Assembly (NCBI GenBank): GCA_963781585.1
Contig: CAWAGQ010000002.1
Location: forward strand, 180,241 to 244,240
Source of the DNA: an uncultured Gemmatimonadaceae bacterium
Lineage (GTDB): Bacteria > Gemmatimonadota > Gemmatimonadetes > Gemmatimonadales > Gemmatimonadaceae
Reading direction: 5' to 3'
DNA: 64,000 bases
The position numbers and the translations under genes were made by a program. A model generated the notes under the pieces. It ran no database searches. It saw only the letters and a program-made list of their open reading frames with translations, and was not told where the DNA came from. The stretch's first letter is position 1. Every line of letters begins with the position of its first letter. Shown in pieces: positions 35,701 to 56,300 of this stretch.

Positions 35701-36237
35701 CTATCTGTACGCCGCGATGGTCCCGTCGGCGAATTCGTCCACACACTTCTGGGCCGCGCGGTCGATGACCCGCGCCGACGGGACGTCCATGGCATAGGGG
35801 CCCACGCGCACGGTAGAGGTGTGCAGGCTGCGCGCCGGCGCCACCGCAGACGCTGTGAGCGTGCCGCTCACCGTCTGTCGCCCGCCGGCAACGGCGAGCG
35901 TCATACGCACGATCACCCTGATGCAATCGCCGGAATCTCCGCGACGGGTTCCGAAGCAAGCGCCGTACGCGTTGTCGGATCCAAGGTTCGCTGTATCGCG
36001 CGCCGAAAAGTCGTCCACCGTCGTGGCGCCGCGATCGCGAAACGCCGCGATCAGCGTGGCTGCCGTGGCGTCCCGCGCCCCTTCGAGGTCGCCGTGAGGA
36101 AGCGACGTGCCGGTTGCCGTCAGCTGAACGACGACGGCGATGGGAGGGAGCGCCACCGAATGGACGGCGGCACGCGCCGTCCACGACAGCGCCGCGGTGA
36201 TCAGCACCACGCCCGTGGCAGGGTAGAACAACTGCAT
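35701..36237 (-). CDS. Secreted hypothetical protein
   Basis: Signal-like N-terminus; last gene of the caspase/CsgG-like unit. Confidence 0.55.
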   Translation of the reverse strand: MQLFYPATGVVLITAALSWTARAAVHSVALPPIAVVVQLTATGTSLPHGDLEGARDATAATLIAAFRDRGATTVDDFSARDTANLGSDNAYGACFGTRRGDSGDCIRVIVRMTLAVAGGRQTVSGTLTASAVAPARSLHTSTVRVGPYAMDVPSARVIDRAAQKCVDEFADGTIAAYR

Positions 36238-36254
36238 GTCACCCGAACGAGCCG

Positions 36255-36977
36255 CTACGGTTTCTTCCGCGCCGCCGTCAGGATCGCTCCGTATGCGTCC
36301 TGCAAAAACGTCGTCAGGGGCTCCTTGAGCGTCTCAATTGCCTTCTGTACCGCGTCGCCCTCGGTCCGGGCCAGTGGGTCGATCTCTGAACCGCTCTTGA
36401 CGTTCTTGCGGACACCCTTGTCGATGGCGTCGGTCGCCGCTTCCTGAATCGATTTGGGAAGAAGTGCCATGACGCCGGTTTTCTTCGCGGCGTCCGATCC
36501 TGGCGTCTTGTTCCGCAGTGTGAACAGTCCCGTCTTTATCAGCTCGCCCGTTGCCGTGTTCACGAGCTTGATCCGTACACCCAGGTCGGCTATGTAGCTG
36601 ATGTCCGAGCGCGTCTTCCCCACGCGGGTGACGGTCTCCGATTCAATGACACCAAGCAGCAGCACGGTGCTGTTGAGACGTGACGTGCTCTCCAGGGAGA
36701 CGCGGCTGTCGAAGTTGCGATAGCTCTGCGCGCGCTGCATCTCCTGCTCGATCGCGGGATCCGTGCTGCGATCGAGAATGGAGTACAGGTCGGCTTCCTG
36801 CGCGAACTGCACGACGTCCTGCCCCAACTGAAGGGCAGTCTGTCGCGAATACGGGCCCGGTGTAAGCACGCCGAACGGCAGGACGGCCAAGGTGACCTCG
36901 GCGCCCTGTGTCAGGGCCGGTTGCGCGGCGGTGAGGGAAAGGCCGGCGACCATGAAGAGCGCGTTCCGAGTACACAT
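36255..36977 (-). CDS. CsgG/HfaB-like (TolB-N fold) exported protein
   Basis: Signal peptide; LAVLPF, ILDRS..IEQE, VRIKLVNTATGELI. Confidence 0.7.
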   Translation of the reverse strand: MCTRNALFMVAGLSLTAAQPALTQGAEVTLAVLPFGVLTPGPYSRQTALQLGQDVVQFAQEADLYSILDRSTDPAIEQEMQRAQSYRNFDSRVSLESTSRLNSTVLLLGVIESETVTRVGKTRSDISYIADLGVRIKLVNTATGELIKTGLFTLRNKTPGSDAAKKTGVMALLPKSIQEAATDAIDKGVRKNVKSGSEIDPLARTEGDAVQKAIETLKEPLTTFLQDAYGAILTAARKKP

Positions 36978-37090
36978 CCGTCTTCTCCCGCTCAGATTAA
37001 GCGGGCTTAACATAGCTCTGCTCGCCTGGTGCCGCAATACGCGCAAGTGACGGAGCTTGGTGACGGCTCGCTATCAGGGCGTCCACTTCT

Positions 37091-38959
37091 TCATGGAACA
37101 GCGTGCCACCAATCGATGTCCGCGCGCGCCGAGAGGGGATGGGAGCAATCCGTGTGCACGCCGTACCGGCACGCCAGCGCGAAGAGTCGGGATGCTTCGC
37201 GCGCGTCGCGCTTGACGCCAAGGCCGATCTCGTGCAGACGTCCCAGCAGGAAACACCCCTCGCCGGAGTGCGCGTTGCAGCTGCGCTCGGCAAGTTCCCG
37301 CGCGCGCGGAAAGTCCGGGTTCGCGCCCAGCCCGAACGACAACTGCTGCGCCAGCAGATTGCACCCCACGGGATCGTAGAGGGCGCAGGCCGCTTCGGCC
37401 AGGCGGCCCGCGAGTGTTTGCTCAGCGGGTGAGCGGTTCCGCTCCACGTAGAGGCGCGCGAGGAAGGCGCACGAGGTCGCGTCGCCACTGCGGCAGCCGG
37501 TGTCGAGATAGGTCTGGCCGGCCGGAGCGAGCCGGGTGCCCGACGTGCCCGGACTCGCGATGGCGGCGTAGGGACAGGCGGCGGGAACGCCGCCGGTGCA
37601 GCCGTTACCAAGGGCCGACAGCAGTTCGCCCGGGCTGCCGCCGTGGCCCTGCGACAGCCACAGACGGGCCAGTCCAGCGCACGCGTTAGGCTCGGCGTGG
37701 TCGCAGGCCTTCCGGAGCCGTGCCGTCCCGTCGGCGCTCCGCGCCGGGTCGCGGGCATCCAGCAGCGCGCCTTCCGCACACGACGCCGCATCTCCCGCGT
37801 CGCAGCCGTGCGCCAGCAGATCGCGCGCCGTGGCGTCGTCCCGCGGGACGCCGTGAGCCGCGAGCACGCGGATGCCCGCCGCGTAGCAGTCGCCGGGCGC
37901 GCCGGCACGGCACGTACCGGACAGCGCGTCGAACCCTCGCGAATCGACCGCCGCGACCAGGACGTCCGGTGCCGCCGCAACGCTCTCCGCCAGAGTGTGT
38001 GACGCGCCGGCTCCGCGCGAACGCGTGTCAGGGACGGCGGCCGGTGGGGTGCCCGCGTCCCGGACCGGGCCGCCTGGCGGGGATGCCGGGGCGGTCCCGG
38101 ATCCAGCGCCGCCGGGATTCGCCCAGGCTCTCGCCGCCGCGGCACCCGCGTCGCGCAGCGGGAACAGAAACTCCCCCCCCTCGTCCTCGGTGTCGAAAAT
38201 CGTCCCGTACTCCGGTGTCACAGGACTGTTGTTCATGACCGCTGTGCGGAGACTGGTAAACAGCTCCGACGCGGGGAGGAGCGCCGCCCGATTCTCATCG
38301 AGTCGCTTGATCAGGTATTCGAGAAAGCGGCTGTTGTCCGGCACGGTCTCCTTGGCCCCGCTGGTCATGGCTTTTCGGCTCCGGAGAGCGTACAGCCGTG
38401 ACATGGCCGGCGCATTCGCGAAGTCCGCTCCGCGCGTCTTGAAGATCCCACCCGAGAAGCACGCGTCGGTGATCAACAGGGTGTGCTGCGTCTTGATGCG
38501 TCTGATCAGGTCACGGATATCGGCGTTGGAGATCCAGCGGGCCGGGTTCGCGCGCCTGGCATCCGCCGGGAGCCAGTAGCCTTGCTGAGTCTTCTCATCC
38601 CAGTGTCCGTGTCCGGCAAAGAAGATCAGGAGGTTGTCGTCAGGGCCCAGTCGCTCCGAGAGCGCGTACAGACTGGCCTCGATGCTGTCGCGTGTCGGAT
38701 TGTCCAGGACGGCGATGTCCCGTGACTCGAACTGGTAGCGCTGGATCAACACGTCGCGCAGTCGCCCGGCGTCACGTACCGGATTGTCCAGCCGCGGCAG
38801 CGCCGGATCGGCATAGTTCTCGACCGCGATCAGCAGCGCGTGGTACGCGCCCAGCCGTGTTGCCCCGCGGTTCTGCTGCACCTCGACCCCTCGGGTGTTC
38901 TGGGCCGCAAGGTGCGCGCCGAGCAGGAGCAGCAACGCCGGGTAGCGGGCGATCGTCAT
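37091..38959 (-). CDS. Exported caspase-family (C14) protease with Cys-rich Sel1-like repeats
   Basis: Signal MTIARYPALLLLLGAHLAA; ALLIAVENY, FFAGHG (His), TDACFSG (Cys); C-terminal GC..GD..SC Sel1 repeats. Confidence 0.9.
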   Translation of the reverse strand: MTIARYPALLLLLGAHLAAQNTRGVEVQQNRGATRLGAYHALLIAVENYADPALPRLDNPVRDAGRLRDVLIQRYQFESRDIAVLDNPTRDSIEASLYALSERLGPDDNLLIFFAGHGHWDEKTQQGYWLPADARRANPARWISNADIRDLIRRIKTQHTLLITDACFSGGIFKTRGADFANAPAMSRLYALRSRKAMTSGAKETVPDNSRFLEYLIKRLDENRAALLPASELFTSLRTAVMNNSPVTPEYGTIFDTEDEGGEFLFPLRDAGAAAARAWANPGGAGSGTAPASPPGGPVRDAGTPPAAVPDTRSRGAGASHTLAESVAAAPDVLVAAVDSRGFDALSGTCRAGAPGDCYAAGIRVLAAHGVPRDDATARDLLAHGCDAGDAASCAEGALLDARDPARSADGTARLRKACDHAEPNACAGLARLWLSQGHGGSPGELLSALGNGCTGGVPAACPYAAIASPGTSGTRLAPAGQTYLDTGCRSGDATSCAFLARLYVERNRSPAEQTLAGRLAEAACALYDPVGCNLLAQQLSFGLGANPDFPRARELAERSCNAHSGEGCFLLGRLHEIGLGVKRDAREASRLFALACRYGVHTDCSHPLSARADIDWWHAVP

Positions 38960-39319
38960 CGCGCCCCGCAGTGGAGCGTTCGGCGGATCGCAACTCTGGA
39001 GCACCATCGACGGGCAGCACCAGACAAAGCGCACGACATGCCCTATCCCCCGCAGAATCAAGTGGTGGTGAAGGCAGTCTAGGGATCACCGGGATGCTCG
39101 GCAAGGCGAGGCCGATGACAGGAGACGGGCAGAGGGCCCAGGGCCCAGGGCGAAAGGCCATGCCACTTGACGTGCTGGGGGATCAGTTTCACCGTTTCTC
39201 CCATTCCGTGATTCCCGGCCCCGTCCGGTTTTCGCGGAGCGCGAACCGGTCGATGCGTCGGTGCCGCAACCGAAGCGTCGATGCGGCGCCGAGGGTCGCG
39301 CGGCCGCCCGCAGCGAGCG

Positions 39320-40183
39320 ATGGTCATGCCTATCCAACACGAGGTTCCGGGAACACCGCGGGCACGACGTATCGCGTGCGCCGCGGCGGTGGCGGTGACC
39401 GTTCTGCTGCCGATGACAATTCCCGCGCAGGGATCCGTGGCCTACGTGCTCGTGGCACGCGGGGCGTGGTTCGCGGGAAGCAAGCCGGGGGAACGCTTGA
39501 CTGCTGGCGTGGCGCTCTTCGCGGGCGACACGATACACTCGGCGCCACAGTCCGAGGTGGGGGACCACATCACCGTCGTCCTGCGCGCCGGGGATGCCAT
39601 CACCCTCGAGTGCACGGCGATGGGCGAACGAGGCTGCGATGAGTCCACCGTGATCCCGGAGGCGCGTGGTTCGACGGTTTTCGGGCGCTTCGTCGACAAG
39701 GTGATGGAGGGGCTACGTGGCGAGCCGACACGATATGCCTCGCTGGTAAGTCGCGGAGCGCCCGGGCCCGCCGATGCGGTGCTCCGGACCCGCGGCGATG
39801 AGCTGGAGGTCGCCCCGGCGCTCGTACCGCTCAATTCCGACGAGTACGGACTGTGCCTGATGCGGCCGGTTCCAGCGAGTGCGACGGCCGCTGCGGGTTG
39901 TGCGCTCGAGGCGCGCTATCATTGGAACGCCGATCGGGCAACGGTCGCACGGTTGCCCGGACTGACGCCGGGGCTGTACCAGCTGGCCGTGCGCTCGGCG
40001 GACGGCGCGTCCGTTGGAGCGCCGGCGTGGGTCGTAGTGACCGACAGCGTGCATTTCCCGCAGATCCACGCCGCATTCGACAGTGCCCGTGCGCTGACCC
40101 TGCGGTGGGGCGATCAGGTTCCGCCCGGCGACATCAGGACGTTCCTGCGGTCCGCGCTCGACGCGCTGGCGCAGAGGCGCTGA
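39320..40183 (+). CDS. Secreted hypothetical protein (start uncertain)
   Basis: Signal-like segment, N-terminal beta domain, LVSRG linker, C-terminal GLTPGLYQLAV. Confidence 0.65.
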   Translation: MVMPIQHEVPGTPRARRIACAAAVAVTVLLPMTIPAQGSVAYVLVARGAWFAGSKPGERLTAGVALFAGDTIHSAPQSEVGDHITVVLRAGDAITLECTAMGERGCDESTVIPEARGSTVFGRFVDKVMEGLRGEPTRYASLVSRGAPGPADAVLRTRGDELEVAPALVPLNSDEYGLCLMRPVPASATAAAGCALEARYHWNADRATVARLPGLTPGLYQLAVRSADGASVGAPAWVVVTDSVHFPQIHAAFDSARALTLRWGDQVPPGDIRTFLRSALDALAQRR

Positions 40184-40194
40184 GGCGGCCGCAC

Positions 40195-41665
40195 GTGCCC
40201 GGCCACCGCGTGCCAGCGAGCGAAGAAGAGCGACCTGGTGATGGCGTCGCCGCTTCGCCGCGCAAGCGCGTACGAAGGGGGGTGCTGGCGATCGTCGGCG
40301 CGGTGCTGTTCTTCCTGCTGGCGGGTCGTCTCGAGGAGTTCTACGGCCTCGAGGCCGCGGCACGCGACTGGCAAGCGTCGCTGCGCGGGAGTGCACTGGA
40401 CAGCAGTGTGGTCCTGGTGATGATCAACGACAACGACTATCGCAGGTACTTCGGCGGTCAGAGTCCGCTCGAGGTGCACGCTCTGGACAGGCTGCTGCGG
40501 GCGATCGCCGCCGGGAAGCCGAGGGTGATCGGCGTGGACCTCGAGACATCGCATCCCGGCTTTGCCAGCCATGCAGCTGCCTGACGACTCGCCACCGATC
40601 ATCTGGGCGCAGGAGGCACTGCGGTGCGACGAGGCGGCGGGCGTCGAAGGGTCTGCCGCAGGTGTCGACTCCGTCGGGGCGACGAAGCCGGAGGCACCGC
40701 CGGGTTCCTGCGGCGCGGACGAGTTGGTGCCGCAGCCCGTGCTTGGCGGTCGCGAGGCCGCGGTACGCGCCGGATTGGTCGCGAACGTCCTGGACCGGAA
40801 AGGCACCATCCGGCTCTACAGCCGCTTCCTCCGCACTACGAACGGAACCCGGCCCTCGTTCGCGTATCTCGTGGGCGTGGCCGGTGCTCCCGATGCGCGA
40901 TTGGGTCCGGTCACGAGCTCTGATTCGACGGCATTGCGCTTTATCTCATTCCATCGTGACGCCGCGTGGAAGGTCAACGTGGAGCAGATCCTCACCATGG
41001 CAGCCGAGTCGGGAACCGGATACACCGGAGCACGGGGGGTCCTGCATGACAGGATCGTGCTGCTCGGTGGGAGTTACCGCGCCGGACGCGACGAACACCA
41101 CACCCCCGTGGGGATGCTGGCCGGGGTGACAATCCAGGCGCAGGCCGTGGAGACCGTGCTCGACGGGGGCGGCGATCCGTCGCCCTCGCTGGTGCGCATC
41201 GCGGTGCTGCAGTTCCTGGCGGGCGCGACCGTCGTGGTCCTGTTCCTGCGCTTCTCGCCCGCCGGCGCCATGCTGCTGACACTCTTCGCGTTCCCCGCGG
41301 TCGCCGTGTTGGGCAGTCTGGTGCTCACGAGTTCGGCGGTCGCGGGTCTGCCATATTTCGCTCCCCTGCTGATCTTCATGATCATCCAGCAGCTCTACGA
41401 TCAGGCGAGTCTGTACCGCGATACGCTCATCGAGGAGTTCTACCGGCAGGCGCGGGGCGCGGCGCGCGGGGAGGATGCCGCCCAGGCACTGCTCGACGGC
41501 GTCGAGGCGCGGGTGGAGCGACTCGAGACCGGGGTTGGCAGGCTCGCGTCGAGGGTTCTGCGGAGAATGAGACCCCGTCATGACGGCGATGAGACCGCGG
41601 CGGGGCAGAGCGGAGCCAGGCCGGCGCAAGGGGAAGCGCCGGCGGGAGAACGCCCGGACACTTGA
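40195..41665 (+). CDS. CHASE2-domain membrane sensor without catalytic output (frameshift near 40570)
   Basis: N-terminal TM; VVLVMINDND, KPRVIGVDL, DRKGTIR, DRIVLLGG...DEHHTPVGMLAGVTIQAQAVET; three C-terminal TMs; short tail. Confidence 0.85.
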
Positions 41666-41689
41666 CACCTCTCCCGGGTGCGCCATTCT
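41662..41689 (+). promoter_or_regulatory. Candidate sigma70 promoter
   Basis: TTGACA-16 nt-CATTCT upstream of the 41745 gene. Confidence 0.4.
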
Positions 41690-41744
41690 TGTCTGCCGCA
41701 GGCAGTGTCTCCCGCAACCCGTCGATACTCGTGAGGCAATCATC

Positions 41745-42209
41745 ATGTCGCTGAAGCAGACCACTCTGGCGTTCTGTGCGGGAGTCGCACTCACTCTTGC
41801 GGCGTCGCGAACGGTTCACGCGCAACAACCGACCGCGAAGGACACGGTCGATACGCATGCCGCGATGAGCCGGGGCGCGGCGACCACCGATCCGAACGTG
41901 AAGCACGATTCGGTGACCAACGTCCGGACGGCATCACCGGATGCACCGCCGGCCAAGGGGGGCGCCAAGCCTCGCGGCATGTCACCGGGACAGCTCCACG
42001 TGGACAATCGCACCCAGTGGGTCATCTTCATCTACGTGGACGGGGATCGCGTCGGCTCGGTCTCGCGATACGGTGATGCGTACGGCTACTACTCGTGCGG
42101 TCCTCACGTGCTCTATGCGCGCGCGTTCTTCGACGATGGGTCGGTGCGCACCTGGGGTCCCGTGACCGCGGCGGTGTGCGGGACGTACACCTGGCGGCTC
42201 TGGAACTGA
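41745..42209 (+). CDS. Small secreted protein: signal peptide, disordered pro-region, beta-rich domain
   Basis: GAGG SD; MSLKQTTLAFCAGVALTLAASRTVHA; MSRG and KPRG; LHVDNRT...IYVDG...TWRLWN. Confidence 0.8.
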   Translation: MSLKQTTLAFCAGVALTLAASRTVHAQQPTAKDTVDTHAAMSRGAATTDPNVKHDSVTNVRTASPDAPPAKGGAKPRGMSPGQLHVDNRTQWVIFIYVDGDRVGSVSRYGDAYGYYSCGPHVLYARAFFDDGSVRTWGPVTAAVCGTYTWRLWN

Positions 42210-42424
42210 CGTCGCTGCTCACGCCGCGCCCGCTCTTTTTTCTCATGCGTCCCACAGCCAGAACAACAGTTCACGAAGACCCTGAACACACTGACGCCCG
42301 AATACTGTTACTCCGCTGACTCCCGATTCCTGTCACTTCGCCCATCAGTTCTCAGCTATCAGTTGCAGTCATCAGGTGTCAGTGGCCTTTTTATCAGACA
42401 GCGAACGCATCGCCTGCCGAATCA

Positions 42425-44797
42425 ATGCCTGCCCGTGACTGCATGCGCCGCGCCGTCGTGATGCTGGCGGCCTGGTCCGCGATGGCAGCCGGAGGGGCGC
42501 TGCGGGTGGATGCACAAACGCGCCGCGTGCTGCTGATCGGGATCAACAAGTATCACTACAGCAGTGCGGTGACAGACGCGTGGCGCGCCCGCCTGCCGCC
42601 CGAGGCGGTGGCCACCACCCGCGGCCCCGACACCACGCGCCGCGCCGACATGCCCGATCTCGACGGCGCGGTGAGTGATGCACGCGCCATGGAGCAGCTG
42701 CTCCTGACCCGGTTCGCGTTCCTGCCCGCCAACGTACGGCACCTCTACAACGAACAGGCCACGCGCTCGGGAATCCTCGACGCCGTCCGCCAGCTCATTC
42801 GCGAGTCGCAGCCGGGCGACGTGGTGGTATTCTACTATGCCGGCCACGGCTCGCAGCGCTACAACTCGCTCGCGCCCGCGTCGGCATCGATCAACAGGTT
42901 CGACCAGACGATCGTCCCCGCCGACGCGAACCTCGGCCAGTACGACGTCCGCAACACCGAGCTCACCGCGCTCTTCGACGAGCTGCTCGCGAAGGGGGTG
43001 CAGGTCACGCTCATCTTCGACAGCTGCAACAGCGGATCTGCTGTTCGCGGCCTGGTGCCCCTCAAGGTGCGCTTCGCGCCGTTCGACCTCCGGGATGCGC
43101 GCGATCCCGCCGATCCGGAGTCGCTCACACGGCCGGGCCGCCGCAATCCGGCGCTGGTCCTCGCCGCCGCGCAGGAGAGCGAATTCGCCTGGGAGGATCC
43201 AGGCACCGGGCACGGGGCCTTCACCGCGGCCCTGCTTCGCGTGCTCCAGAGTGCGGCCACGTCGGTGAATGCGCCGGCGCAGGAGATCTTCCGCCAGGTC
43301 GAAGCGCTCCTGCGGTGGAACAGCGTTCCGCAGGTACCGGTTCTCAAGGGAACCGACGCCGACGCGGGGCGGCCGCTGTTTGGCGCGGAGAAGGGCGCTG
43401 GTGCCGGGCGACTCCTCCTCACGCTCCAGGGCATTACCGGTCCGCAGCAGGATACGGCGATTCTCGACGGCGGTGCGGCAATGGGCATCGGCGAGGGCAG
43501 CGAGCTGCGTGCGGTCGGCGTGGGGCCGGAGACGCTCCGCCTGCGCGTGGTCGGCGGGTCCGACCTGAGCACGAGCCGTGCAGTGGCGATCGCCGGCACA
43601 CTCCGCCCCACTCCGGGCGCGGCATTCGTCGTCGAGAAATGGGTGCTCCCTGCCGAGGCGAACCTGCAGGCGTGGGTTCCGGCGGCGATCGACGAGCGCG
43701 CGCTCGCGGCGGCCGCGAGACAGCTGGCGGGATTGCGCAGCGCGGGGAGCGTGGAGTGGGTCGCCGATCCGACTGCACTGCCTGACGATGGCCGGCTCCT
43801 CTACACTGTGGAGTACGATGCCGGCACGTGGAAGCTTCGCCTCCCCTCCGGATCCCTGACCGCGCTGCGCGCCCCGGCTCCGGCAGACATCCAGGCCGCC
43901 GTCGCCGCCGACGTTCGCCTGACGAGCGAGGCGCGTGCGCGGGAGGCGGGCGCGCCGGCCGCGGCACCGGGACAACCGCGACTGTTCGTGATGGTGCCGC
44001 CGACGACGAGGCTGCTGCAGGAAACCGGCCTCGCGACTCCCTCGTCTCCGGTGCGCGTGTCGCCGAGTCCCGCGGGGTGTGCCTATGCGCTGGTGGGCCG
44101 GTTGAATGACGACGGCACGGTGAGCTACGCGTGGGTACGGCCGAACGCCACCGGGCAATCGGCGACCCGCTCGCCGTTTCCGGTGCGCACGGATTGGATC
44201 TCCGAAGGCGATGACGCGGCCGGAGGGAAGCTGGGCGAGCTGGGCCGGCGGCTGGCGCGGGTGAACTACTGGTTGACGGTCCAGGACCACAACCCGAATC
44301 CGTTCCCGTATCATCTCGTGCTGCGCCGCACCGACGCCACGGCGCCCGACAAGGCAATGGCCGACACCACCCCCACGCACGGTGGTGAGCAGTACCGGCT
44401 GGTGCTGCGCCCCGATCCCACGCTCCCTGTGCAGAGCGACACGCAGTGGGTCTACATCTTCGTCATCGATCGAACCGGCCGGGGCCAGCTGCTGTTCGGT
44501 CAGTCGATGAACAAGTTCCCGCCACCGACGGCCGCGCCGGGAGCGGGTGCGACGGCGGAGGTGGTGGTGCCGAAGTCCGACTTCACCATCACATCCCCGT
44601 ACGGAATCGACACGTTCGTCCTGCTGGCGTCGAAGCGTCCGATGGGTACGCCCGAGAGCACATTCAGCTTTCCAGGCGTCGTGCTCGAGGGCGGAGCGCG
44701 TGGTGTGGAGGCACACACCGAGCCACCCCCCGCCGACTGGTCCATTCAGCGACTGGTGACGCGGAGCCTGCCGCCGGCCAGCGGCGGGAACCGCTGA
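42425..44797 (+). CDS. Exported caspase-family (C14) protease with DUF4384-like C-terminus
   Basis: Signal peptide; VLLIGINKY, FYYAGHGSQ (His), FDSCNSG (Cys), HGAFT; C-terminal WVYIFVID..G..LLF, PYGIDTFVLLAS. Confidence 0.9.
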   Translation: MPARDCMRRAVVMLAAWSAMAAGGALRVDAQTRRVLLIGINKYHYSSAVTDAWRARLPPEAVATTRGPDTTRRADMPDLDGAVSDARAMEQLLLTRFAFLPANVRHLYNEQATRSGILDAVRQLIRESQPGDVVVFYYAGHGSQRYNSLAPASASINRFDQTIVPADANLGQYDVRNTELTALFDELLAKGVQVTLIFDSCNSGSAVRGLVPLKVRFAPFDLRDARDPADPESLTRPGRRNPALVLAAAQESEFAWEDPGTGHGAFTAALLRVLQSAATSVNAPAQEIFRQVEALLRWNSVPQVPVLKGTDADAGRPLFGAEKGAGAGRLLLTLQGITGPQQDTAILDGGAAMGIGEGSELRAVGVGPETLRLRVVGGSDLSTSRAVAIAGTLRPTPGAAFVVEKWVLPAEANLQAWVPAAIDERALAAAARQLAGLRSAGSVEWVADPTALPDDGRLLYTVEYDAGTWKLRLPSGSLTALRAPAPADIQAAVAADVRLTSEARAREAGAPAAAPGQPRLFVMVPPTTRLLQETGLATPSSPVRVSPSPAGCAYALVGRLNDDGTVSYAWVRPNATGQSATRSPFPVRTDWISEGDDAAGGKLGELGRRLARVNYWLTVQDHNPNPFPYHLVLRRTDATAPDKAMADTTPTHGGEQYRLVLRPDPTLPVQSDTQWVYIFVIDRTGRGQLLFGQSMNKFPPPTAAPGAGATAEVVVPKSDFTITSPYGIDTFVLLASKRPMGTPESTFSFPGVVLEGGARGVEAHTEPPPADWSIQRLVTRSLPPASGGNR

Positions 44798-44878
44798 TCG
44801 ACCCCGGCTTCCCGCCCACGAGGATCGCCGCTCTGCCGGCGCCGTCGGCAACCCGCTGTGCCGAGCGTGGCACGGCCG

Positions 44879-46492
44879 CTACTTCTTTGCGGGCTTTCCG
44901 CCGTCCCCCGGCCCGGGCGGACGCCCGCCATCATCGCCGCCACCGTGCCCGCCCGACAGCAGGTCGGGCAGGTTGAAGATCGAGATGGAGAAATACCGGA
45001 CGGCGTGCCCGTAGGTATCGCGGGTCCGGAGAAACTTGTCGTTCGGCACGTGGTCGCCGATGGCGAGGCCGTCCAGGACCGCGTGGCGCACCATCACCGC
45101 GCCGAACCCCACCTTGACCGACCAGAGCGAAAGCGCCGCGCCTAACGCAAAGGCCCGCGGCCCGCTGCCGGCTTCGGCGACCGTCACCTCGGGGAGCCAC
45201 AAGGCGACGTTGTGCGTGCCCCGCCAGTCGAGCCACGGATACCAGGTGATGCCGAGCGTCACGCCGTAGGAGAAGCGGTCGTCGACCGTCGACGATTCGT
45301 AGACCTCGTTAGGCGACCCCGACCCGCCGGTGGCCCGTACGCCATAGGTGTGATAGATGGCGCGGGAGGCGTAGAGTGCGGAGAGCGCGAGCGTGGCGTT
45401 GAGGCGGGCCGGTGGCGGGAGGAGCGTGACGCTGAACGAATAACTGCGGTCCCCGGCCACGCGCTGGATCTCGGGATCCGACAGCGGCTGGACGCGGACC
45501 GTGACCACCCGTCCCGCGCTCGGAGAAACCCGTACCGGAGGCGACTCCCAGTGCGAGCACGCGCCGAGGACCTGGTTGGCCGTATGTTCGACCCGGTACA
45601 CCCCGGTGAGCATCGCGTCCGAATCGCGCAGAGCCGTGTCGGCACGTGCCTCGACGCGCTGCAACCCGCTGCGCAACTCGACGATGCTGATGTCCATCAG
45701 CAGGGTGTCGCTGAGCGCGGCGCGCAGTTCGGCCGCCTCGGGCTGCAGCGTGTTCAGCGTCGCCAGCACGTCGCTGGAGATGGTAAGCGCACCCGATGCC
45801 ACACCCCGCGCCTTCGCGCCGGGCGCGCTTTCCTGGCAGCTCTGGTCCGGCACTTCCAGCGTGTCGGCCATCGCCCGCGCCTGCGCCTCGACGTCGCCGA
45901 TTCGCATGCGGTCCAGCGTACGGAGCGTCAGGCCGAGCACCGCGTCAACGCCCCTGGGGCCGTGCGAGAGCTGGTCGAGTCGGAGCAGGTCGCTCTCCAC
46001 GGCCTGGCCGGTCGCGAGCGCGCGCGCCGCCACCGCCGCGCTGGCAAGCGAAACGCCTTCGGGAACCGACTCCGGGAGCGTGCTGGCGCGCCTCGCGCCC
46101 GCGGGCCCTCGCCCGCGCGGGACCACGAACGCCAGCTCGGGCAGGTACGACTTCATCATCGGAAGGAACTGGCGAATCGGTTGCGCCGTCGGCGGAGCCG
46201 GGGCGGGGTTGTCCTCGGTGGTGATGCGATACAGGGCCGTGTTCGTATTCACGACCTGGAGCCGGACCGTCGCCTGTCGGCGTACGCGCCACGTGCCGGC
46301 TTCCACGGAATCGACCAGGCGGCCATGCGCCGGCTTCGCCACGTGGACGGTCTTCGCGACCGGATCGACCTGGAGGACGACGTCCGCAGCAGTCGTCGAT
46401 GAGTCCTGAGCGCGCACTACCCGGGTGATCGTCAAGAGACACCCGGCGCAGACGGACAGGACAAGACAGAGTGTATGGCGACTGGATTGCAT
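44879..46492 (-). CDS. Secreted or outer-membrane hypothetical protein
   Basis: Signal peptide; beta domain, PRGRG linker, helical middle, amphipathic beta-strand C-terminus. Confidence 0.65.
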   Translation of the reverse strand: MQSSRHTLCLVLSVCAGCLLTITRVVRAQDSSTTAADVVLQVDPVAKTVHVAKPAHGRLVDSVEAGTWRVRRQATVRLQVVNTNTALYRITTEDNPAPAPPTAQPIRQFLPMMKSYLPELAFVVPRGRGPAGARRASTLPESVPEGVSLASAAVAARALATGQAVESDLLRLDQLSHGPRGVDAVLGLTLRTLDRMRIGDVEAQARAMADTLEVPDQSCQESAPGAKARGVASGALTISSDVLATLNTLQPEAAELRAALSDTLLMDISIVELRSGLQRVEARADTALRDSDAMLTGVYRVEHTANQVLGACSHWESPPVRVSPSAGRVVTVRVQPLSDPEIQRVAGDRSYSFSVTLLPPPARLNATLALSALYASRAIYHTYGVRATGGSGSPNEVYESSTVDDRFSYGVTLGITWYPWLDWRGTHNVALWLPEVTVAEAGSGPRAFALGAALSLWSVKVGFGAVMVRHAVLDGLAIGDHVPNDKFLRTRDTYGHAVRYFSISIFNLPDLLSGGHGGGDDGGRPPGPGDGGKPAKK

Positions 46493-46909
46493 GTTCCCGC
46501 CGAGGGTTCGGTCTGCCAAGAGGCCGGCACCACCGTCCGGCCGACTGCTGCGGCTGCCGAACGACGTTTCCAACAGGCCCGGCGCCCGCCGGCGTCAGAG
46601 TGTGCCGCAACCCGGGAGCGATTGTCAAGTGCACCGCGCCGCCACGCAGGCTCCATGCGGGACGCTGGAGTGTCATGCCCATCTTGCGTCGGCCAGTTGT
46701 CCCGCGCAGTGTGTGGCGACACCTGGACGGATTCTTTCATGGTTACGACGCAAACCGGTTCAGCGAGCGCACGGATGCATTTGGCGCTCGTTCACGGTCG
46801 GAGAGGCGATGCCCGCAGCACCTTGCGCACGGTGCTTTCTGCCGTGCGCCGTGCAAAGCAGGTCCGTCGCCACTTCAGCAAAGCGGGCATCGTGCGCAGT
46901 TGTGTGGAC

Positions 46910-49900
46910 ATGGTGCTGTCGCTCTGGTTGCCAGCCTGCTGCGTTGCTCCCGTCGCGGCCCAGGTGAGCGGGTCGTCCACCAGCGCGGCCTCACTTCGAC
47001 AGGAGGCGCAGCAGCTCTGGTTCGAGGGTAAATACAGTGAGGCAGCCGCTGCATATGGGCGGCTCGCAAGCCTGTACGCGCGTGCCGGTCGGGTCGAGGA
47101 TTTAACGTCTGCCCTGGCACAGGCCGGCGAGTCGCGCCTCATGCTCGGCCAGTACGTCCAGGCGCGCTACGATTTCCGAGCCGCATACGCCGCCGACAGC
47201 ACCCGCAACGGTGCAAAGGCCGACGCCTACGACCTTGTGCTCGTGGCGCTCTCATTCCGCGTGGCAGGTCTCGCCGACTCGGCCATGCCGGCATACGACC
47301 GCGCGCGCAGCGCCCTGCAGCGCCAAGGGGTCACCGGCTTCCTCGACGCTGCCCTGAACGAGGCGCGCATGCAGAGCCTCACGTCGCGACGTGACTCGCT
47401 CGACGCGGAGATCCGACGCCGGCACCCGGACTGGCCGATGATCCTCTGTCCTCCGCCACCGTCTGATACATCCGTCACCGAGGCGAATCGCCGGTGGTTG
47501 GCCGAATGCTGGAGGGGCGATTCTCTTCTCGCAATTGCGCGCGACTCCGTGTCGCGTGCGTTCGACGCGCTCGCTGCCGGCATTTCCGGTGCTCGCGACG
47601 ATGCCCATGACGCAACTGGGTTCTCGGAATCACGCTGTCGGAGCGCGCTGCCGCGCTCCGCGAGCGCGGTGAGGCTGAAAGCGCCCGAGCCGAGTTCCAG
47701 AAGGCTTCCCGGGCGTTCGGTCGTACGACGGCACCGTTGTTGTTGACGCGTGTGCAAACTATTGGCGACCGTGATGCGCCCACCGACCACGTGCATCTGC
47801 GGTTTGTGTGTCGTGGTGCAGGGGCTGCGCCGTGGTGCCGTGTTGGCGCGACGGAATCGTCGATTGTGCAGCTTCGTCTGCGACTGGCGAAGGAACGATT
47901 TCTCGGCGACATCGAGGGAGAAGGACTCACCCTCAGACGACTTCGCGCCGCACTGCTGGCGGTCGGCGATACCGCGGCCGTCCGCGAGGCCGCCGCCGCA
48001 ATCGGGTGGCTCCACGATCTGCAGACGGGAGGCACGGGCGTGCCGGCAACGGAAATCGCGCCAGACGAGCGCATTGCGACTCTCCTGGCGACGGGGAAGC
48101 ACTGGCTCGAGGCCGGACTTGTCGATTCCGCTCTGGTCGCTCTGGATGACGCGCAGGAGGAGCTGGAGAAGCATAAGGGCGCCGCCAACCTGACGGCGCT
48201 TGGAGGGGAAGTCTTGGGGGCAAGGGCGTTGGCGCTCCAACGAAATGGACAGGTCGAGTCTGCCATCGAACTGCTGCTGGAAGGTGAACGGCGGCTCACC
48301 CAGCAGCTCGTCCTGACGAACGACGTGGCTCCCATGGTTGCTCGAGTTCTGCTGCTTGCCGACTTGGCGGGATTGTACCATCGAGCATTGGCGAAACCGG
48401 ATCTGCTGCGCGCGACCGCGTACTACGATACGGCGTCCACCGCCATGCTGAACGCGCTCGCAATGCCGTTGCGCGACGAAGAGCGGACCGTCCTGTCGGA
48501 CCGTGTGGCGGACTTGCACGCAGACTGGGCTCTGGCGTGGCTCGGTCGAGAATCGTTCTTCGGCGAAAGCGCTCGCAGTGCGCTTGGCGCCATCGAGGAG
48601 GGACGTGTTCGTGCCTTGCAGCTCATGCGGGGCGCGGAGTGCGAGCGAGACGTGTCGGGCGCGTTCCCTTCGCTCGGTGATAAGGTAGGTGAGTACATCG
48701 GAACCCACGTCGGGCCGGGCGAAGTACTGCTTGACTACGCGCTGGCGCGAGACACCCTCCTCATCTGGATTATCAGCGGCGGCCGTACGCAAGTGGTCCG
48801 TCGAGGAGTGGACCTGCAGGCGACCGAATCGGACGTTGCCGCGGTGCGTGCCGGCATGCGACCTCGTGCCGACGCGCCGGTCGCCCCTTCGGCGGCAGGG
48901 CGGCGGACGCCATCGAGCGAGCGTGGTGTTTTGGTCGGCGTCGAGCCGGCCACAGCGGCCGAGCCGGCGCTGAATCGACTATATGACGTTCTGTTCCCGG
49001 GTCCGGTGGAGGCGGCGATGGCGGACAGTCAGCTACTGCTGATTGTTCCTGATCGCGTTCTGAATGAACTGCCGTTCGCGGCGCTCCGGTCGGACAGCAC
49101 CCGGGCGCCACTCGGGGCGACTCATCCGCTTCGCTTCGCGCCGGGCATTGCCATTCTTGGCGATGCGGTCGAGTCGGCGTTCCCCACGGCGCTCCGCCCC
49201 TGCTCGGACATCACGTCACCGGAGCGGTGTGCACCCACCCTGTCGCGCGGATCGACGAATGCCGCGGGATGGAAGGCGCGACGCCTCAACTGGAGCCAGC
49301 ATTCGCTAGTGGTCGGAGATCCGCGAATGCCGCATGTGCGCCTTCCGGGAGGAGACACACCGACGTTGCTGGATTCGCTGCCGGGGGCCCGCGCGGAAGC
49401 GCTCGAGATCGCCGCACTCCTCGGCGTCAGGCCGCTTATCGACAGTGCCGCGACGGAGGGTGCAGTCCGACGTGCGATGGCCCAAGCGCCCGTGATTCAC
49501 CTGGCTACCCATGGACTCGCCTACAGCGATTCGCACCTGGCGCGCCGTTCGTTCGTTGTCCTGGCGGCCGATGCCACGAATGACGGATTGTTGGAGGCCC
49601 GGGAGATCGCGGACGACTCAACGCTCACTCTCAGGGCGGAACTCGTGGTGCTCAGCGCCTGCGAAACCGCGTTAGGTGCTCTGAGCCGCACCGAGGGTAC
49701 GATCGGCCTTCAACGTGCGTTTCTCGCCCGTGGCGCACGTTCGCTGCTGGTCAGCCAATGGAAGGTCCCCGACGCGGCATCGAGACTGCTCATGACGGCA
49801 TTCTATCGCGCATGGCTCGACCCCGCGCGCGACACCGACAAGGCGGCGGCCCTCCGTGAGGCACAGGTCGAGGTGCGGAAGGTGTATCGAGATCCATACT

Positions 49901-49935
49901 ACTGGGCGGGCTTTCAGCTCATCGGCGCGCCATGA
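46910..49935 (+). CDS. TPR-CHAT domain protease (frameshift near 47615; start uncertain)
   Basis: TPR-like helices; IVPDRVLNELPFAAL, LVVGDP, LPGARAE, IHLATHG (His), VVLSACET (Cys), SQWKVPD, PYYWAGF. Confidence 0.88.
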
Positions 49936-49965
49936 GGCGCGCGCAGCGGTCGCCGGCGCGAAGCC

Positions 49966-52063
49966 CTACTGCCGTCGCACTGGGCGGGCGACGAGTTGAG
50001 CCAGGCTCGGATCGACAGACAGGTCGAAGCGGCTCCCCAGCGCTGATCCCGACCCGGACGGCCACAGTCTTCCGTAGTCGATGGGAGGGAACGCGGGATC
50101 GGGTGCAAGGAGCAGAGGGCCGCTCGCCGGCAGGCGGCTGGCAACTTCCGGAGGAAACAGAAACGCCGCCAAGCCGGCTCGCGCAACGGAATCGTCTGAC
50201 GCAGCAAGACGGATCAAGCGCTGCTTGGTCGCCGCCACCCGCGTCAGCGCGGCGTACGTTCCCGAACTCAGCATGAGGTCCGGCCGCAGCGTCCAGATCA
50301 CAAGCGTGTCGTTGGCGAACCCGTACACCAAGGCCGATCGGCCGTGGAGCTGGTTGGCCAACGCCCATCCATCGTTGTCCATGGGCGGCGACGCATCGGC
50401 GTCGGTTATGTCGTACGGCACCGAGCAACCTGGTCGTATCGCAGAATCTACGCTGCTGTGTTGATCCGTGGGGAGCGGCACGAACCCGCCGAGTGCCTGC
50501 CGTTCACGTGCGCCGAGGGCAGACAAAACGTACGATTCGGCGAAGCCGCTGTCGCGCGCGGCCTGACGTGCCGCTACGGCTGCCCATGCCAGCATGATCT
50601 CTTCACGGAGCAGTGTGTCGTCTTGGGAATGCAGGAGCCTGACCTCACCGGTACCGGCCAAGGCGCGAAGGTCCGGCGGGATCCTCTGGATCGCGGGCAC
50701 CAACCACAGCAGTGCGATCTCGGACCCGCGTCCGCGCCGACCATGAAGCGTGGTGAGATTCATCAGCATGGTGGTCATTTCACGACAGTCATGCCGTCCT
50801 GGCACGAACGCGGAATCAGTTCCTGGGATCCCCAGTTCACCTACTGCCTCGGCAGCGCGGTAGGCCTCCATAGCTGACTGCGTGAACACTATGGCACTGT
50901 CGATGCTGTTCGATTCGGAGAAGCGGGATGCCAATCTCACGTACACGCGCCACAGCTGCGCCGCGCCGCGCGGGTTCGATTGGAGCGGCGAGCGCTGCCT
51001 GCACGAGATACGCTGTGGTGGAGTCCGAGACGCCCATGCTTTCGTACAGCACCGCAATACGCTGTCGGGTTTGGGCCAACCCCGCTCCGCCGCTCTCTCG
51101 TTGCGCCGCCGCGAGAAGCTTGAGGTGCCGAAGTACAGTGTCAGTCGGAACGCGCTCGGACTCGATCGCCAGCATCGAGGGGAGCACGGCTTGCGCCTGC
51201 ATCCAATCGTCCTGTTGCTCATACGCCGCGAGCGCGGAGCGGTAGTGGACCAGGGCAGAGTCGATCTGCTGATCCCGCGCCAGTCCGTTTGCCAAAAGGG
51301 TGTCTGCCTCTGGGGCCAACGAGGGATCGTAGAGGCGACAAACCGCTGAGAAGAGTCGGAGGTATGGCAGCGCGTCATGCGCGCGACCACGCTCCACCAA
51401 GGGCGGGACCACGGCCTGGATGGCCAGGCTGGTGACAGCGCCAATGCCCTCAACTGACGCGCTGTCCTGGCGCGGCGGTGGGTGGGCCAGGATCTGCGCG
51501 ACCAGCGCGAGCGCCGTATCCGGCCGCAAGGTCGCTTCCGTTGCCGCGAAATCGAGGAGTTCATGCACGAGTGCGCGATCGGCCCCGCGGGCGCGCAAGG
51601 CAGCTACCACGCGCGTGTGAATCACGCGTGCAGAGTCCAGACGGTTTGCGTCCGCATACGCGTCTGCGATATGGCTCTCCTGCTCCAGAACCACGCCGGA
51701 ATCGCCAATCTGCCGGGCCACCGCAAGCGCCAGAAGGTCGTAGTGGAGAACGGAATCCAGCGCGTGGTCCAGCCAAGCGAGCCACGCGAAGGTTCGCAAC
51801 GCGTCCAATTCTCTAGGCCGGTCGCCGCGCGCTCGTGCGAGCACGAGCGCGCGTTGTGCGAGGGACCGCGCCCGCCGGTTCTCCGTCAATGCGGCCCGCC
51901 CCTCCAGTGGAGCTGCACGCCTTGTCGCCACGGCAGCGTCCAGCAGCACCGTAACGGAATCGGGTCGCGTGGTAGCGGACCCCCGTATGGCTACCTGAGC
52001 GGACGACACCGGTGACAGGACCAGTTCGGCAGTACAGAGGATCAGCGTCGCTCCCAGGAACAT
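49966..52063 (-). CDS. Exported TPR protein ending in the non-catalytic first half of a CHAT domain (frameshift near 50930)
   Basis: Signal MFLGATLILCTAELVLSPVSSA; TPR-like helices; LVYGFANDTLVIW, LAAFLFPP, LLLAPD..IDYGRL, LGSRFDLSVDPSL then stop. Confidence 0.65.
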
Positions 52064-53349: not shown

Positions 53350-56300
53350 ATGAGCACGGACCTGCGCGCACAGCTCCAGGAGACCCTGGGCAGCGCCTAT
53401 ACGCTCGAACGCGAACTCGGCGGCGGCGGCATGTCGCGCGTCTTCGTGGCTGAGGAGACGCGCCTTCACCGCAAGGTGGTGGTCAAGGTCCTCTCTCCCG
53501 AGCTCGCGGCCGGCGTGAGCGCCGAGCGCTTCGAGCGGGAGATCCAGCTTGCGGCCTCGCTGCAGCAGGCGAACATCGTGCCTCTGCTTTCCGCCGGCGA
53601 GACGAACGGGCTGCCGTACTTCACCATGCCGTTCGTGGAAGGGGAATCGCTGCGAGTCCGGTTGGCGAAGGGGCCGCTCAGCGTGACCGAGGTGGTCGGC
53701 GTGTTGCGCGACGTCTCACGCGCGCTGAGCTACGCCCACGAGCGCGGCGTGGTGCATCGCGACATCAAACCCGACAACGTCCTCCTGTCGCACGGGACGG
53801 CGGTAGTGACGGACTTCGGTATCGCCAAGGCGCTCTCCGCGTCGCGAACGAAGAGCGGTGACGCCACGCTCACGCAGCTCGGCACGTCCATCGGCACGCC
53901 GGCCTACATGTCGCCCGAGCAGGCGGCCGGGGAGACGGAGATCGATCATCGCGCGGACATCTACGCCTTCGGCTGCATGGCGTACGAGTTGCTGGCGGGG
54001 CATCCGCCGTTCCACGGCCGCACGCCCACGCGTGTGCTCGCCGCCCAGATGAGCGAGACGCCGCCGCCGGTGAACGATCTGCGCCCCGACACGCCGGTCG
54101 TCCTCGGCGAACTGGTCATGCGCTGCCTGGAGAAGGATCCGGGTCGCGACCGCAGTCGGCGAACGACCTTGCCCGGACGCTCGACAACGTCACAAGCGGG
54201 GCGGGCATGCCATCGATGCCCGCGGTCCTGCTTGGTGGGCGGGGCATGCTCCGGCGCGCCCTGCTGGTCTATGCCGCCGCCTTCATCGGAGTGGCGGTGG
54301 TTTCGAAGGCGGCGATCATCGCCATCGGACTTCCGTCATGGGTCTTTCCGGGCGCCCTCATCGTCATGGCGCTGGGCCTGCCGGTCATCCTGTTCACGGC
54401 GTACGTGCACCGGGCCACGCGACGGGCCCTCACCGCCACGCCGACGCTCACGCCGCGGGGCACGCAGCCCGAGGCGCCGGGGACGATGATGACCATCGCC
54501 CTCAAGGCGAGCCCGCATCTGAGCTGGCGCCGCGCCGCGTTCGGCGGCCTCTATGCGTTAGGCGCGTTCGTGCTGCTGGTGGGTGCGTACATGGTGCTCC
54601 GGATGTTCGGTATCGGGCCGGAGGGCTCGCTGCTGGCCGCAGGGAAGCTGTCCAGCCGGGATCAGGTGCTGATCGCGGATTTCGCCGTACCGGGCTCGGA
54701 CTCGTCGCTGAGCACCGCGCTCACCCAGGCGCTCCGGTCGCAGCTCGAGCAGTCGACAGCAATCTCGGTGATGCCGGTCAGCTCTGTCACGGCGGCACTC
54801 GAGGAGTCGCGACGCCCCGCGAACACGCGGATCGACCTCGACGTCGCCAAGGACATCGGGTTGCGCCGCGGCGTGAAGGCCGTCGTGGCCGCCGATGCCG
54901 CGCAGCTCCCGGGTGGCGGCTACCTGGTGACCACGAAGCTGGTAAACACCCGGACCGGTGATGCCCTGGCGAGCTATCAGGAGACGGCGCAGGACGCCGC
55001 GGGGCTCCTTGGTGCGATCGACGCCGCGACGCGCAAGCTGCGAGCGCGCATTGGCGAGTCGCTCAAGGCCATCCAGGCCGAGGCGCCTCTTGAGCAGGCG
55101 ACGACGTCGTCGCTCGACGCCCTGCGGAAGTACGCCCAGGGCGTGCGTGCGAACGACGTGGAAGGCGACTACCTGAAGGCGGTGGGACTGTTGCGTGAGG
55201 CGGTGGCCCTCGACAGCTCGTTCGGTATTGCCTACCGAAAACTGGCCGTGGCGCTGAGCAATGCCTCGGAGCCCGCCGTGCTGCAGCGCGCGGCCATCGA
55301 GAGAGCCTACCAACTCCGGGACCGGATGTCGCAGCGCGAGCGGGATCTGGCGATGGGTGTCTACTTCGGCACCCGGCCCTACGCTGATCGCGCAAAGGCG
55401 ATCGACGCGTACAGCGACGCGTTTCGCCTCGATCCGCGGTCGTACACGGCGAGCGGCAACCTCGCACAGCTGGTGGCATCGAAGCGCGACTGGGACGGGG
55501 CCCTGCATTACGCGCGGCTCACCGAAGAACTGCTTCCCATGTCGGCCTTCGGGTACTGGTATCAGGTGGACGCGCTCGCGTCGCTGGGGCGCTTCGCCGA
55601 GTCAGCCGCTGTCCTGGACACGCTCGCCCGCGTGGACAGCACGAGCAGCACGTGGATCCTGGCGATCGCCTCGCTCGCCCAGGCGCGACAGCAATACGAT
55701 TCGCTGGGCGCGCTGCTCCGGCGACAGGTCACGGCCCGCGACCGCGACGCACGCCTGGCAGCCATCCAGACGCTGGTCGGCGTTGCGTCCGTCCAGGGTC
55801 GCGTGGCCGAGGCTCGTCGCTGGCTCGACTCGCTCGACGTGATGCTGCGTCTGCGGTCGCGCGCCGATTCGGCAACGGCGATCCTCGGCGACGCGTTCTT
55901 CGCCGCGGCCTACGATCTGGACCGGGCCGGGGCGATTGCCCTCGCCGACCGCATCTCGTCGGCCACCTACCTGGACGGGATCCCGTCGCCGGACCGTCCG
56001 TACCTTGGTGTCGCGACGCTCTACGCGCGGGCCGGAGACGCGGCGCGGGCGCGCGCCATCCTGTCCCGCTACGAGGAGCAGGTACGCGACACCGCGCTGC
56101 TACGACAGGATGCACCGGCCCACCATGGCGTACTCGGCGAAGTGGCGCTTGCCGAGCGCCAACCGAACGTCGCGATCCGGGAGTTCCGTCTGGCGGACGT
56201 ACAGCTCGACGGCGCACCCGATCCGTGCGCTGTCTGCCTCGACCTGGGGCTGGGCCGCGCGTACGACCTGGCGGGGCAGGCGGATTCGGCGATCGCCGCG

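Follow-up and report, generated by a model that had tools for sequence, protein, structure and literature searches.

An accessory genomic island in a member of the Gemmatimonadaceae brings together probably exported caspase-type and CHAT proteases and a CHASE2 membrane protein

We describe a 16-kb genomic island in which apparently exported proteases of clan CD, a membrane protein with a CHASE2 domain and a set of secreted partners are encoded side by side. The island lies in a 64,000-nucleotide stretch (hereafter the window) of contig CAWAGQ010000002.1 (positions 180,241 to 244,240, forward strand) from assembly GCA_963781585.1 of an uncultured Gemmatimonadaceae bacterium, where ten adjacent genes, g1 to g10, fill positions 35701-52063. 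They encode two homologues of C14 caspases (g3 and g7), a tetratricopeptide repeat (TPR)-CHAT protease (g9), a TPR-CHAT-like protein that ends early (g10), the CHASE2 protein (g5) and the secreted or membrane-anchored partners g1, g2, g4, g6 and g8. Because the pairing of clan-CD proteases with CHASE2 recurs in other genomes, as do all five of these partners, sequence comparison makes it highly probable that the genes of the island are functionally linked. As to what they do, we tentatively favour a composite envelope locus of exported clan-CD proteases, CHASE2 and small secreted partners in which CHASE2 would be gated by proteolysis, a reading that we place slightly short of evenly balanced. 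An earlier interpretation of this DNA, made without database searches (hereafter the sequence-only reading), had proposed an exported protease cascade in which sensing by TPR or Sel1 repeats triggers cleavage and releases a ligand that is read by CHASE2. Its ten adjacent genes are real, and its premise that they belong together is borne out by the protease association of CHASE2 loci, by the clades of a CHASE2 tree and by recurring operons and fusions; the cascade and its released ligand stay hypothetical.

The host is a metagenome-assembled genome (MAG) of 5.7 Mb in 17 contigs, with a completeness of 93.5% and a contamination of 7.2%, and the window forms the end of its contig. The guanine-plus-cytosine (GC) content of the region is 66-70% and is the same in the island as in its flanks. 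As spurious open reading frames (ORFs) are abundant at high GC, gene models were chosen by third-position GC together with a codon model trained on the host genome. The genes so defined fall into five transcription units, namely g3-g2-g1 on the minus strand, g4-g5-g6-g7 on the plus strand, and the single genes g8 (minus), g9 (plus) and g10 (minus). The sole Pfam C14 match, the sole CHAT match and the sole CHASE2 gene of the 5.7-Mb genome all lie within this island, and at 1e-5 no island protein has a paralogue outside it.

Both caspase homologues carry intact catalytic motifs, as had been claimed from the sequence alone. The product of g7 (42443..44797, plus strand) matches Pfam Peptidase_C14 (PF00656) at 4.2e-22, with 79.4 bits against a cut-off of 21.4. 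It contains the motifs YYAGHGS (His) and FDSCNSG (Cys), and its closest solved relatives by sequence are metacaspases 4 and 9 and GSU0716. Its caspase domain is followed by a tail of about 480 residues of unknown fold. The DUF4384-like tail that the sequence-only reading had assigned to one of the caspases found no backing, as g7 scores 18.5 bits against the DUF4384 (PF14326) cut-off of 27, and a profile built from six true caspase-DUF4384 tails gave no match. The second homologue, g3 (37091..38959, minus strand), has no Pfam C14 match at E<=0.01. It does match the NCBIfam model NF047832 (caspase_w_EACC1) at 2.5e-22, but with 79 bits against a subfamily cut-off of 140, and the PADLOC caspase model at 2e-13. 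Together with the motifs FFAGHGH (His) and TDACFSG (Cys), these matches make the predicted caspase fold of g3 clear. The Cys-rich C-terminal region of g3 is Sel1-like, with one repeat above the cut-off (33.6 bits against 30.7), in agreement with the Sel1 repeats reported earlier for one of the caspases.

The two remaining protease-like genes each extend over two reading frames. In g9 (46910..49935, plus strand; the first frame runs to 47746 and the second from 47737), the CHAT domain (PF12770) is recognised at 5.7e-61 and 206.9 bits against a cut-off of 24, and its motifs HLATHG and LSACET align with the conserved His and Cys columns of a purpose-built CHAT profile. Its description as a TPR-CHAT protease with an intact dyad therefore holds for the CHAT part and the His/Cys columns, while the TPR part is only weakly seen (TPR_2, E 0.076). 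The product of g10 (49966..52063, minus strand) is also TPR-CHAT-like and apparently exported, and it ends before the catalytic dyad. Towards the N-terminus it shares 28% identity with the TPR region of a TPR-CHAT protein from genome G305, and towards the C-terminus 27% with the pre-CHAT stretch and first ~65 CHAT residues of a relative at locus L006. There is no Pfam CHAT match in g10, and the purpose-built CHAT profile found none at E<=10. Thus, what had been called a TPR protein with half a CHAT domain is indeed TPR-CHAT-like and retains only about the first fifth of CHAT.

The CHASE2 protein predicted from the sequence is also present, being recognised above the cut-off in both of the frames (40192-40584 and 40562-41665) that make up g5 (40192..41665, plus strand). 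The two pieces match Pfam CHASE2 (PF05226) at 2.5e-11 (profile positions 3-77) and 9.9e-11 (positions 101-239), with 44.1 and 42.1 bits against a cut-off of 26.3, and hydrophobic segments both precede and follow the domain.

We next consider where these proteins are likely to reside. The N-termini of all ten island proteins are signal-like, with an uncharged run of 10-29 residues that is followed by A-Q in eight of the ten; these calls were made by a hand heuristic, and neither SignalP nor another trained predictor was used. By this heuristic, the statement that nearly all of the proteins have signal peptides or membrane anchors extends to all ten. The proteases that adjoin g8 homologues in other loci also have signal-like N-termini. 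Judged from their sequences, the proteases of the island are probably extracytoplasmic.

The principal evidence that these genes work together comes from other genomes of the phylum. Pfam CHASE2 is present in 33 of 400 such genomes, at 38 places, 37 of which were examined over about 8 kb on each side using purpose-built caspase and CHAT profiles together with Pfam. A caspase or CHAT gene lies within 8 kb of CHASE2, or is fused to it, at 14 of the 37 loci. Among these 14, the hit at L063 is weak and at the end of a contig, L072 holds a CHAT-CHASE2 fusion, and at L078 the gene lies 7 kb from CHASE2. A subset of 16 loci, including those with the highest-scoring CHASE2 matches, has no clan-CD protease (0/16). 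Five protease-linked genomes have 2-8 C14 genes each in 3.5-4.1 Mb, so few that by our own arithmetic chance adjacency within 17 kb would be expected at about 1-3.5% per locus. On a maximum-likelihood tree of 34 CHASE2 domains, protease association requires 3 changes, compared with a mean of 11 when the labels are shuffled (none of 500 shuffles was as low). This tree leaves out L075, L081, L082 and L094, which our own profile missed at 1e-5, and the N-terminal piece of g5. The island protein g5 falls in a clade (support 98/97) with CHASE2 proteins from genomes G407, G289 and G299, all of which are without an output domain and all of which adjoin CHAT or caspase genes.

The protease-linked CHASE2 loci show several architectures. 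A five-gene operon encodes an MBL-fold protein, an exported caspase-DUF4384 protein, a CHASE2-adenylate/guanylate cyclase, a secreted protein of about 310 residues and a GAF-HD protein. This operon is complete in L062, L064, L065 and L070 (exemplified by genome G143, L065:269-8253) and partial in L063 and L066. Its caspases have hydrophobic N-termini, and the ~310-residue protein belongs to an unnamed family. In G305 (L068:2688-16563), an M48-TPR gene precedes a CHASE2-cyclase-DUF928 gene, and three exported TPR-CHAT genes flank them. In the fusion protein of G397 (L072:7770-9767), CHASE2 (residues 320-588) is preceded by an incomplete CHAT domain (residues 10-161). Elsewhere, CHASE2 also occurs with a C-terminal TIR domain (G131, L074:7310-9085; TIR_2, 4.9e-26), which gives a CHASE2 receptor a TIR output.

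In these genomes, operon structure and one domain fusion connect clan-CD proteases with g1, g2, g4 and CHASE2. The fusion concerns g1 (35701..36237, minus strand), a 178-residue secreted protein encoded by the last gene of g3-g2-g1 in the frame chosen by third-position GC. In its C-terminal part, a caspase protein of G299 matches residues 35-175 of g1 (E 2.7e-14), and so g1 corresponds to a domain that is fused to a caspase elsewhere. In that same G299 operon, the caspase with its g1-like domain is accompanied by a gene for an unknown protein, an output-less CHASE2 gene and, after the latter, a homologue of g2 with 46% identity. The 240-residue exported product of g2 (36255..36977, minus strand) had been called CsgG-like, and it may be CsgG/LpoB-like. 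The Atlas feature search, which relies on a protein language model, places it with CsgG/LpoB clusters (score 0.94, 170 shared features, the family being common to the 10 best of 10), and this part of the earlier description is retained as a lead. The families PF03783 and PF13036 were sought in Pfam without a match at E<=5, and no solved relative was found.

The remaining small partners are g4 and g6. The product of g4 (39281..40183, plus strand; the start could be 39281, 39320 or 39389) is a secreted or anchored protein of an unnamed family, encoded directly upstream of CHASE2. In G407, where g4 has a homologue (E 1.4e-14), three genes stand in the order g4-like, CHASE2, TPR-CHAT; the first overlaps the beginning of the second, whose product is output-less, and the second overlaps the third. 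A weak relative (E 1e-3) also lies upstream of the CHASE2 gene of G289. Three candidate identities for g4 were rejected. It matches no Pfam family, and its Atlas lead to FecR scores just 0.76; its comparison with the ~310-residue protein of the cyclase operons gave an hhalign probability of 0.2; and an Atlas lead to MtxA (0.86) was followed by a profile search of solved structures that returned only weak immunoglobulin-like matches (E 0.031 and 0.9) and no MtxA. The 154-residue secreted product of g6 (41745..42209, plus strand), encoded upstream of g7, has a homologue (34-36% identity, E 6e-21) that adjoins a g7-like caspase in G277. Neither Pfam nor NCBIfam has a family match for g1, g4, g6 or g8, and all four have signal-like N-termini, as expected from the four secreted unknowns listed in the sequence-only reading.

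The last of the four, g8 (44879..46492, minus strand), encodes a 537-residue exported protein that defines a family of its own. A word-index search found 13 relatives, none with a Pfam domain, and a full profile search found 204 cluster representatives among 1.84 billion, none of the 25 sampled having a Pfam family. The sole relative in the species collection is from a Gemmatimonadaceae MAG. An AlphaFold2 model with a predicted local distance difference test score (pLDDT) of 70 shows a beta-sandwich at the N-terminus, then a helical bundle, and an up-and-down beta domain at the C-terminus. Foldseek returned no match at E<=0.001 for either the whole model or the C-terminal domain, and the structural matches of the helical bundle (Z 8-10) are in a range common for helical proteins. 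The C-terminal domain (pLDDT 73) has BBn6 (Z 8.3) and LptG (Z 5.6) as its top structural matches, followed by PagL, OmpA, NspA and OprF (Z 4.6-4.8), while Foldseek lists OmpA and OmpX only at E>=0.015. These best matches, although weak, are small outer-membrane barrels and a designed barrel, and in five strands of the domain hydrophobic residues alternate with Gly, Ser or Thr. On the basis of this model, g8 may be an outer-membrane-anchored component.

Homologues of g8 are also found in the company of clan-CD proteases, with caspases and/or CHAT proteins encoded beside them at five of the six loci with enough flanking sequence. The neighbours are a TPR-CHAT, a CHAT and a g7-like caspase with 55% identity over its full length at L006; a kinase-TPR, two caspases and a CHAT at L008; a kinase-TPR, an ECF-type sigma factor, two caspases and an M48-TPR at L005; an M48-TPR directly upstream and a g3-like caspase (52-55% identity) at L019 (genome G331); and a caspase-PPC, a g6-like protein, a full-length g7-like caspase (35-36% identity) and an M48-TPR, with a TPR-CHAT farther on, at L020 (G277). 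The sixth locus, L021 (G212), has no such neighbours and holds the most distant homologue (~25-31% identity). Gene order varies among these loci, and adjacency to proteases is kept.

Some further genes at these loci deserve mention. The N-terminal motif of g8 recurs in a second g8-like gene, of divergent sequence, at L005:8129-9322, and the gene that follows g8 in L020 (10999-12066) encodes, by eye, a caspase-type domain without the catalytic His. Exported M48 metallopeptidase-TPR proteins, whose architecture we take to resemble that of Escherichia coli BepA, are encoded beside g8 or CHASE2 at L019:10951-12816, L020:7656-9554, L005:19436-21145 and L068:6066-7943. In the window itself, a Ser/Thr kinase with a TPR region (53350..56537, plus strand; Pkinase 5.3e-44 and TPR families, in two overlapping frames) lies beyond g10; as kinase-TPR genes adjoin g8 homologues in L005 and L008, it is a possible associate of the island.

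How might such a locus operate? In the arrangement that we favour, the two C14 enzymes and the TPR-CHAT protease would act in the periplasm or at the cell surface, where their repeat or tail domains would select protein substrates. A cut in a g4-type secreted partner, or in the CHASE2 ectodomain itself, would then make CHASE2 a protease-gated receptor. In the sister operons, the receptor with its cyclase, followed by GAF-HD, would yield a cyclic nucleotide output. These cyclase operons suggest that CHASE2 is a receiver and a cyclic nucleotide its output, which fits a protease-gated receptor. In Sinorhizobium meliloti, CHASE2 cyclases are reported to respond to plant uL2 via an outer-membrane beta-barrel protein (PMC13001267), and a CHASE2 response to a protein signal fits gating by proteolysis as well. 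The sister operons resemble this pathway, NsrA - CyaD1/CyaD2/CyaK - Clr, in having CHASE2-cyclases, and the C-terminal domain of g8 is possibly barrel-like. The differences are that the accessible account of the NsrA pathway describes no protease, that g5 has no cyclase, and that the likeness of g8 to NsrA is one of description only. We regard it as rather unlikely that CHASE2 domains are protease-gated receptors and, in addition, that g8 is a new outer-membrane component delivering the protein signal. That the signal runs from the proteases to CHASE2 is possible but doubtful.

A number of observations weigh against a protease-gated CHASE2 in a single composite locus. Clan-CD neighbours are missing at 23 of the 37 CHASE2 loci, and because the genomes are related the locus counts are not independent and overstate independence. 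CHASE2 is found beside none of the g8 homologues at the six loci, and the island may therefore be two or three modules that merely lie side by side. The co-occurrence expected by the sequence-only reading was thus found for g1, g2, g4, g6 and g8 with proteases or CHASE2, and not for g8 with CHASE2. With respect to export, the n-region of g1, g9 and g10 carries no net positive charge (0 or negative). The roughly 100 residues of g5 past its membrane region contain no Pfam or NCBIfam output domain such as a cyclase or kinase, which leaves a ligand read by CHASE2, as earlier proposed, without an evident readout in this locus. The fusions in G397 and in Trichodesmium (PMC3501461) place the protease N-terminal to the first membrane helix, and in the latter the protease was read as cytoplasmic, a different topology (PMC3501461). 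Finally, the reading frame changes within g5 (at ~40570), g9 (~47630) and g10 (~50900), and none of these three junctions has a homopolymer of at least 4 bases nearby.

For g5, either of two solutions would be conceivable: its membrane part could hand the signal on to another protein, or the direction could be reversed. Under the reversed scheme, the output-less CHASE2 and g4 would form a sensor or scaffold that holds and activates the exported proteases, with the cleavage of envelope or foreign proteins as the output. The CHASE2 proteins of the g5 clade, which have no cytoplasmic output yet are always encoded beside a protease, make this a serious rival, and the overlap of the CHASE2 and TPR-CHAT genes in G407 agrees with it. 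In the fusions, moreover, the protease stands in place of an output domain (G397; PMC3501461), and the periplasmic TPR-CHAT of DdvA has been proposed to be activated by a signal (PMC11506125). The commoner operon type, in which CHASE2 has its own cyclase and is followed by GAF-HD, fits a receiver better than a mere scaffold, and we judge the reversed scheme to be unlikely, if well worth keeping in view.

The frame changes lead to a different explanation, in which the locus consists of decaying or merely co-located genes for secreted proteins without a joint function. As no homopolymer accompanies the junctions, g5, g9 and g10 could be real pseudogenes, and three such changes in 16 kb, the missing catalytic half of g10 and the fact that g8-centred and CHASE2-centred loci do not overlap elsewhere all agree with decay. 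However, third-position GC remains coding-like through all three junctions, and every module has conserved counterparts in other genomes. Frame-split genes are also found outside the island, where they encode a TonB-dependent receptor (18893-21153), the Ser/Thr kinase-TPR protein (53350-56537) and a ChaN haem-binding protein (58305-59283). Indel errors, perhaps throughout the assembly, are therefore a fair explanation of the splits. The integrity of g5, g9 and g10 remains uncertain; we consider decay or mere co-location of the genes, without a joint function, improbable.

The distribution of the island raises the further question of whether it serves conflict or defence at the envelope, with exported caspase-fold proteases that would recognise and cleave proteins of phages or competitors, or set off cell death. 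The island is an accessory one, since among 40 close relatives g8 is found in none and g7 is matched in just two, weakly and in the caspase domain; the same-genus genome among the 40 is only 64% complete. Caspase and CHAT enzymes are frequent in bacterial immunity (PMC8195603; bioRxiv 10.1101/2023.06.23.546230), DdvA senses phage via its periplasmic TPR-CHAT (PMC11506125), and Feng et al. tied a metacaspase/CHASE2 island of Psychroflexus to cell death or algal interactions (PMC3914696). The CHASE2-TIR fusion of G131 would also be at home in such a role. Against this, PADLOC, run on 16 proteins, returned generic caspase models (g3 and g7) and kinase models (PD-T4-6, mad6 and others) and no partners of any one system, and Pfam scans of the island revealed no NTPase, nuclease, CRISPR, sigma or anti-sigma gene. 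The GC content, which matches that of the flanks, and the absence of a tRNA or integrase gene at the island borders also argue against it, and a defence role appears to us quite unlikely.

Farther along the window, between 60000 and 64000 and near the contig end, the GC fraction falls to 0.62-0.63. This low-GC stretch encodes a Hypoth_Ymh protein (60199-60867) and, on the minus strand, a DDE transposase (61090-62673).

Several published systems share components with the island. Metacaspase-CHASE2 fusions have been reported, and prokaryotic metacaspases often carry Sel1 repeats, TPRs or N-terminal helices (PMC3501461, PMC2853523). Genomic island 15 of Psychroflexus torquis contains four metacaspase genes, some with signal peptides, beside a gene for a CHASE2 protein (PMC3914696). 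Like the Trichodesmium erythraeum fusion and this cluster, the Gemmatimonadaceae locus links caspase homologues with CHASE2, and the Psychroflexus cluster likewise lies on an accessory island. These reports are descriptive, and their accessible text makes no mention of CHAT, a g4-type partner, g8 or an output-less CHASE2. There, the Trichodesmium fusion is interpreted as having its protease in the cytoplasm and its CHASE2 domain outside the cell, and the Psychroflexus enzymes carry WD40 repeats.

A close parallel to g9 is DdvA (PMC11506125), which is also an extracytoplasmic TPR-CHAT protein with a His-Cys dyad and which has been proposed to sense a protein signal and to act through regulated proteolysis. 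DdvA combines one membrane helix with a zinc anti-sigma domain in the cytoplasm and is partnered by an ECF (extracytoplasmic function) sigma factor. By contrast, g9 has a signal-like start, its membrane partner would be CHASE2, and no Pfam family for a zinc anti-sigma or an ECF sigma factor was found in g9, g10 or the scanned neighbours. The cytoplasmic cascade invoked by the sequence-only reading is in print: in a type III-B CRISPR system, a SAVED-CHAT protein acts on a co-encoded PCaspase in sequence, in the cytoplasm and in response to cyclic oligoadenylate through SAVED (bioRxiv 10.1101/2023.06.23.546230). Unlike that system, the island has neither SAVED nor CRISPR-Cas genes in Pfam and PADLOC scans. 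No exported caspase or CHAT operon with CHASE2 was described in the literature searched, which did not cover subscription journals. Within that literature, the claim that no characterised pathway has this composition holds, with the qualification that the fusions and the Psychroflexus cluster precede it (PMC3501461, PMC2853523, PMC3914696).

If CHASE2 domains are indeed gated by proteolysis, bacteria would have an equivalent of protease-activated receptors or the Spaetzle-Toll cascade. The caspase homologues of bacteria are for the most part treated as effectors of cell death or immunity that act in the cytoplasm, and to our knowledge the natural signals of CHASE2 domains are largely unknown. 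Here, caspase homologues are apparently exported and linked to CHASE2, for which the only signal named in the literature searched is the plant protein in Sinorhizobium. The locus also defines the unnamed g8 family of about 200 sequence clusters, which is tied to clan-CD proteases. Taken together, these findings pose the testable question of whether an exported caspase-type protease can switch a CHASE2 cyclase, for which the cyclic nucleotide of the sister operons would provide an easy readout.

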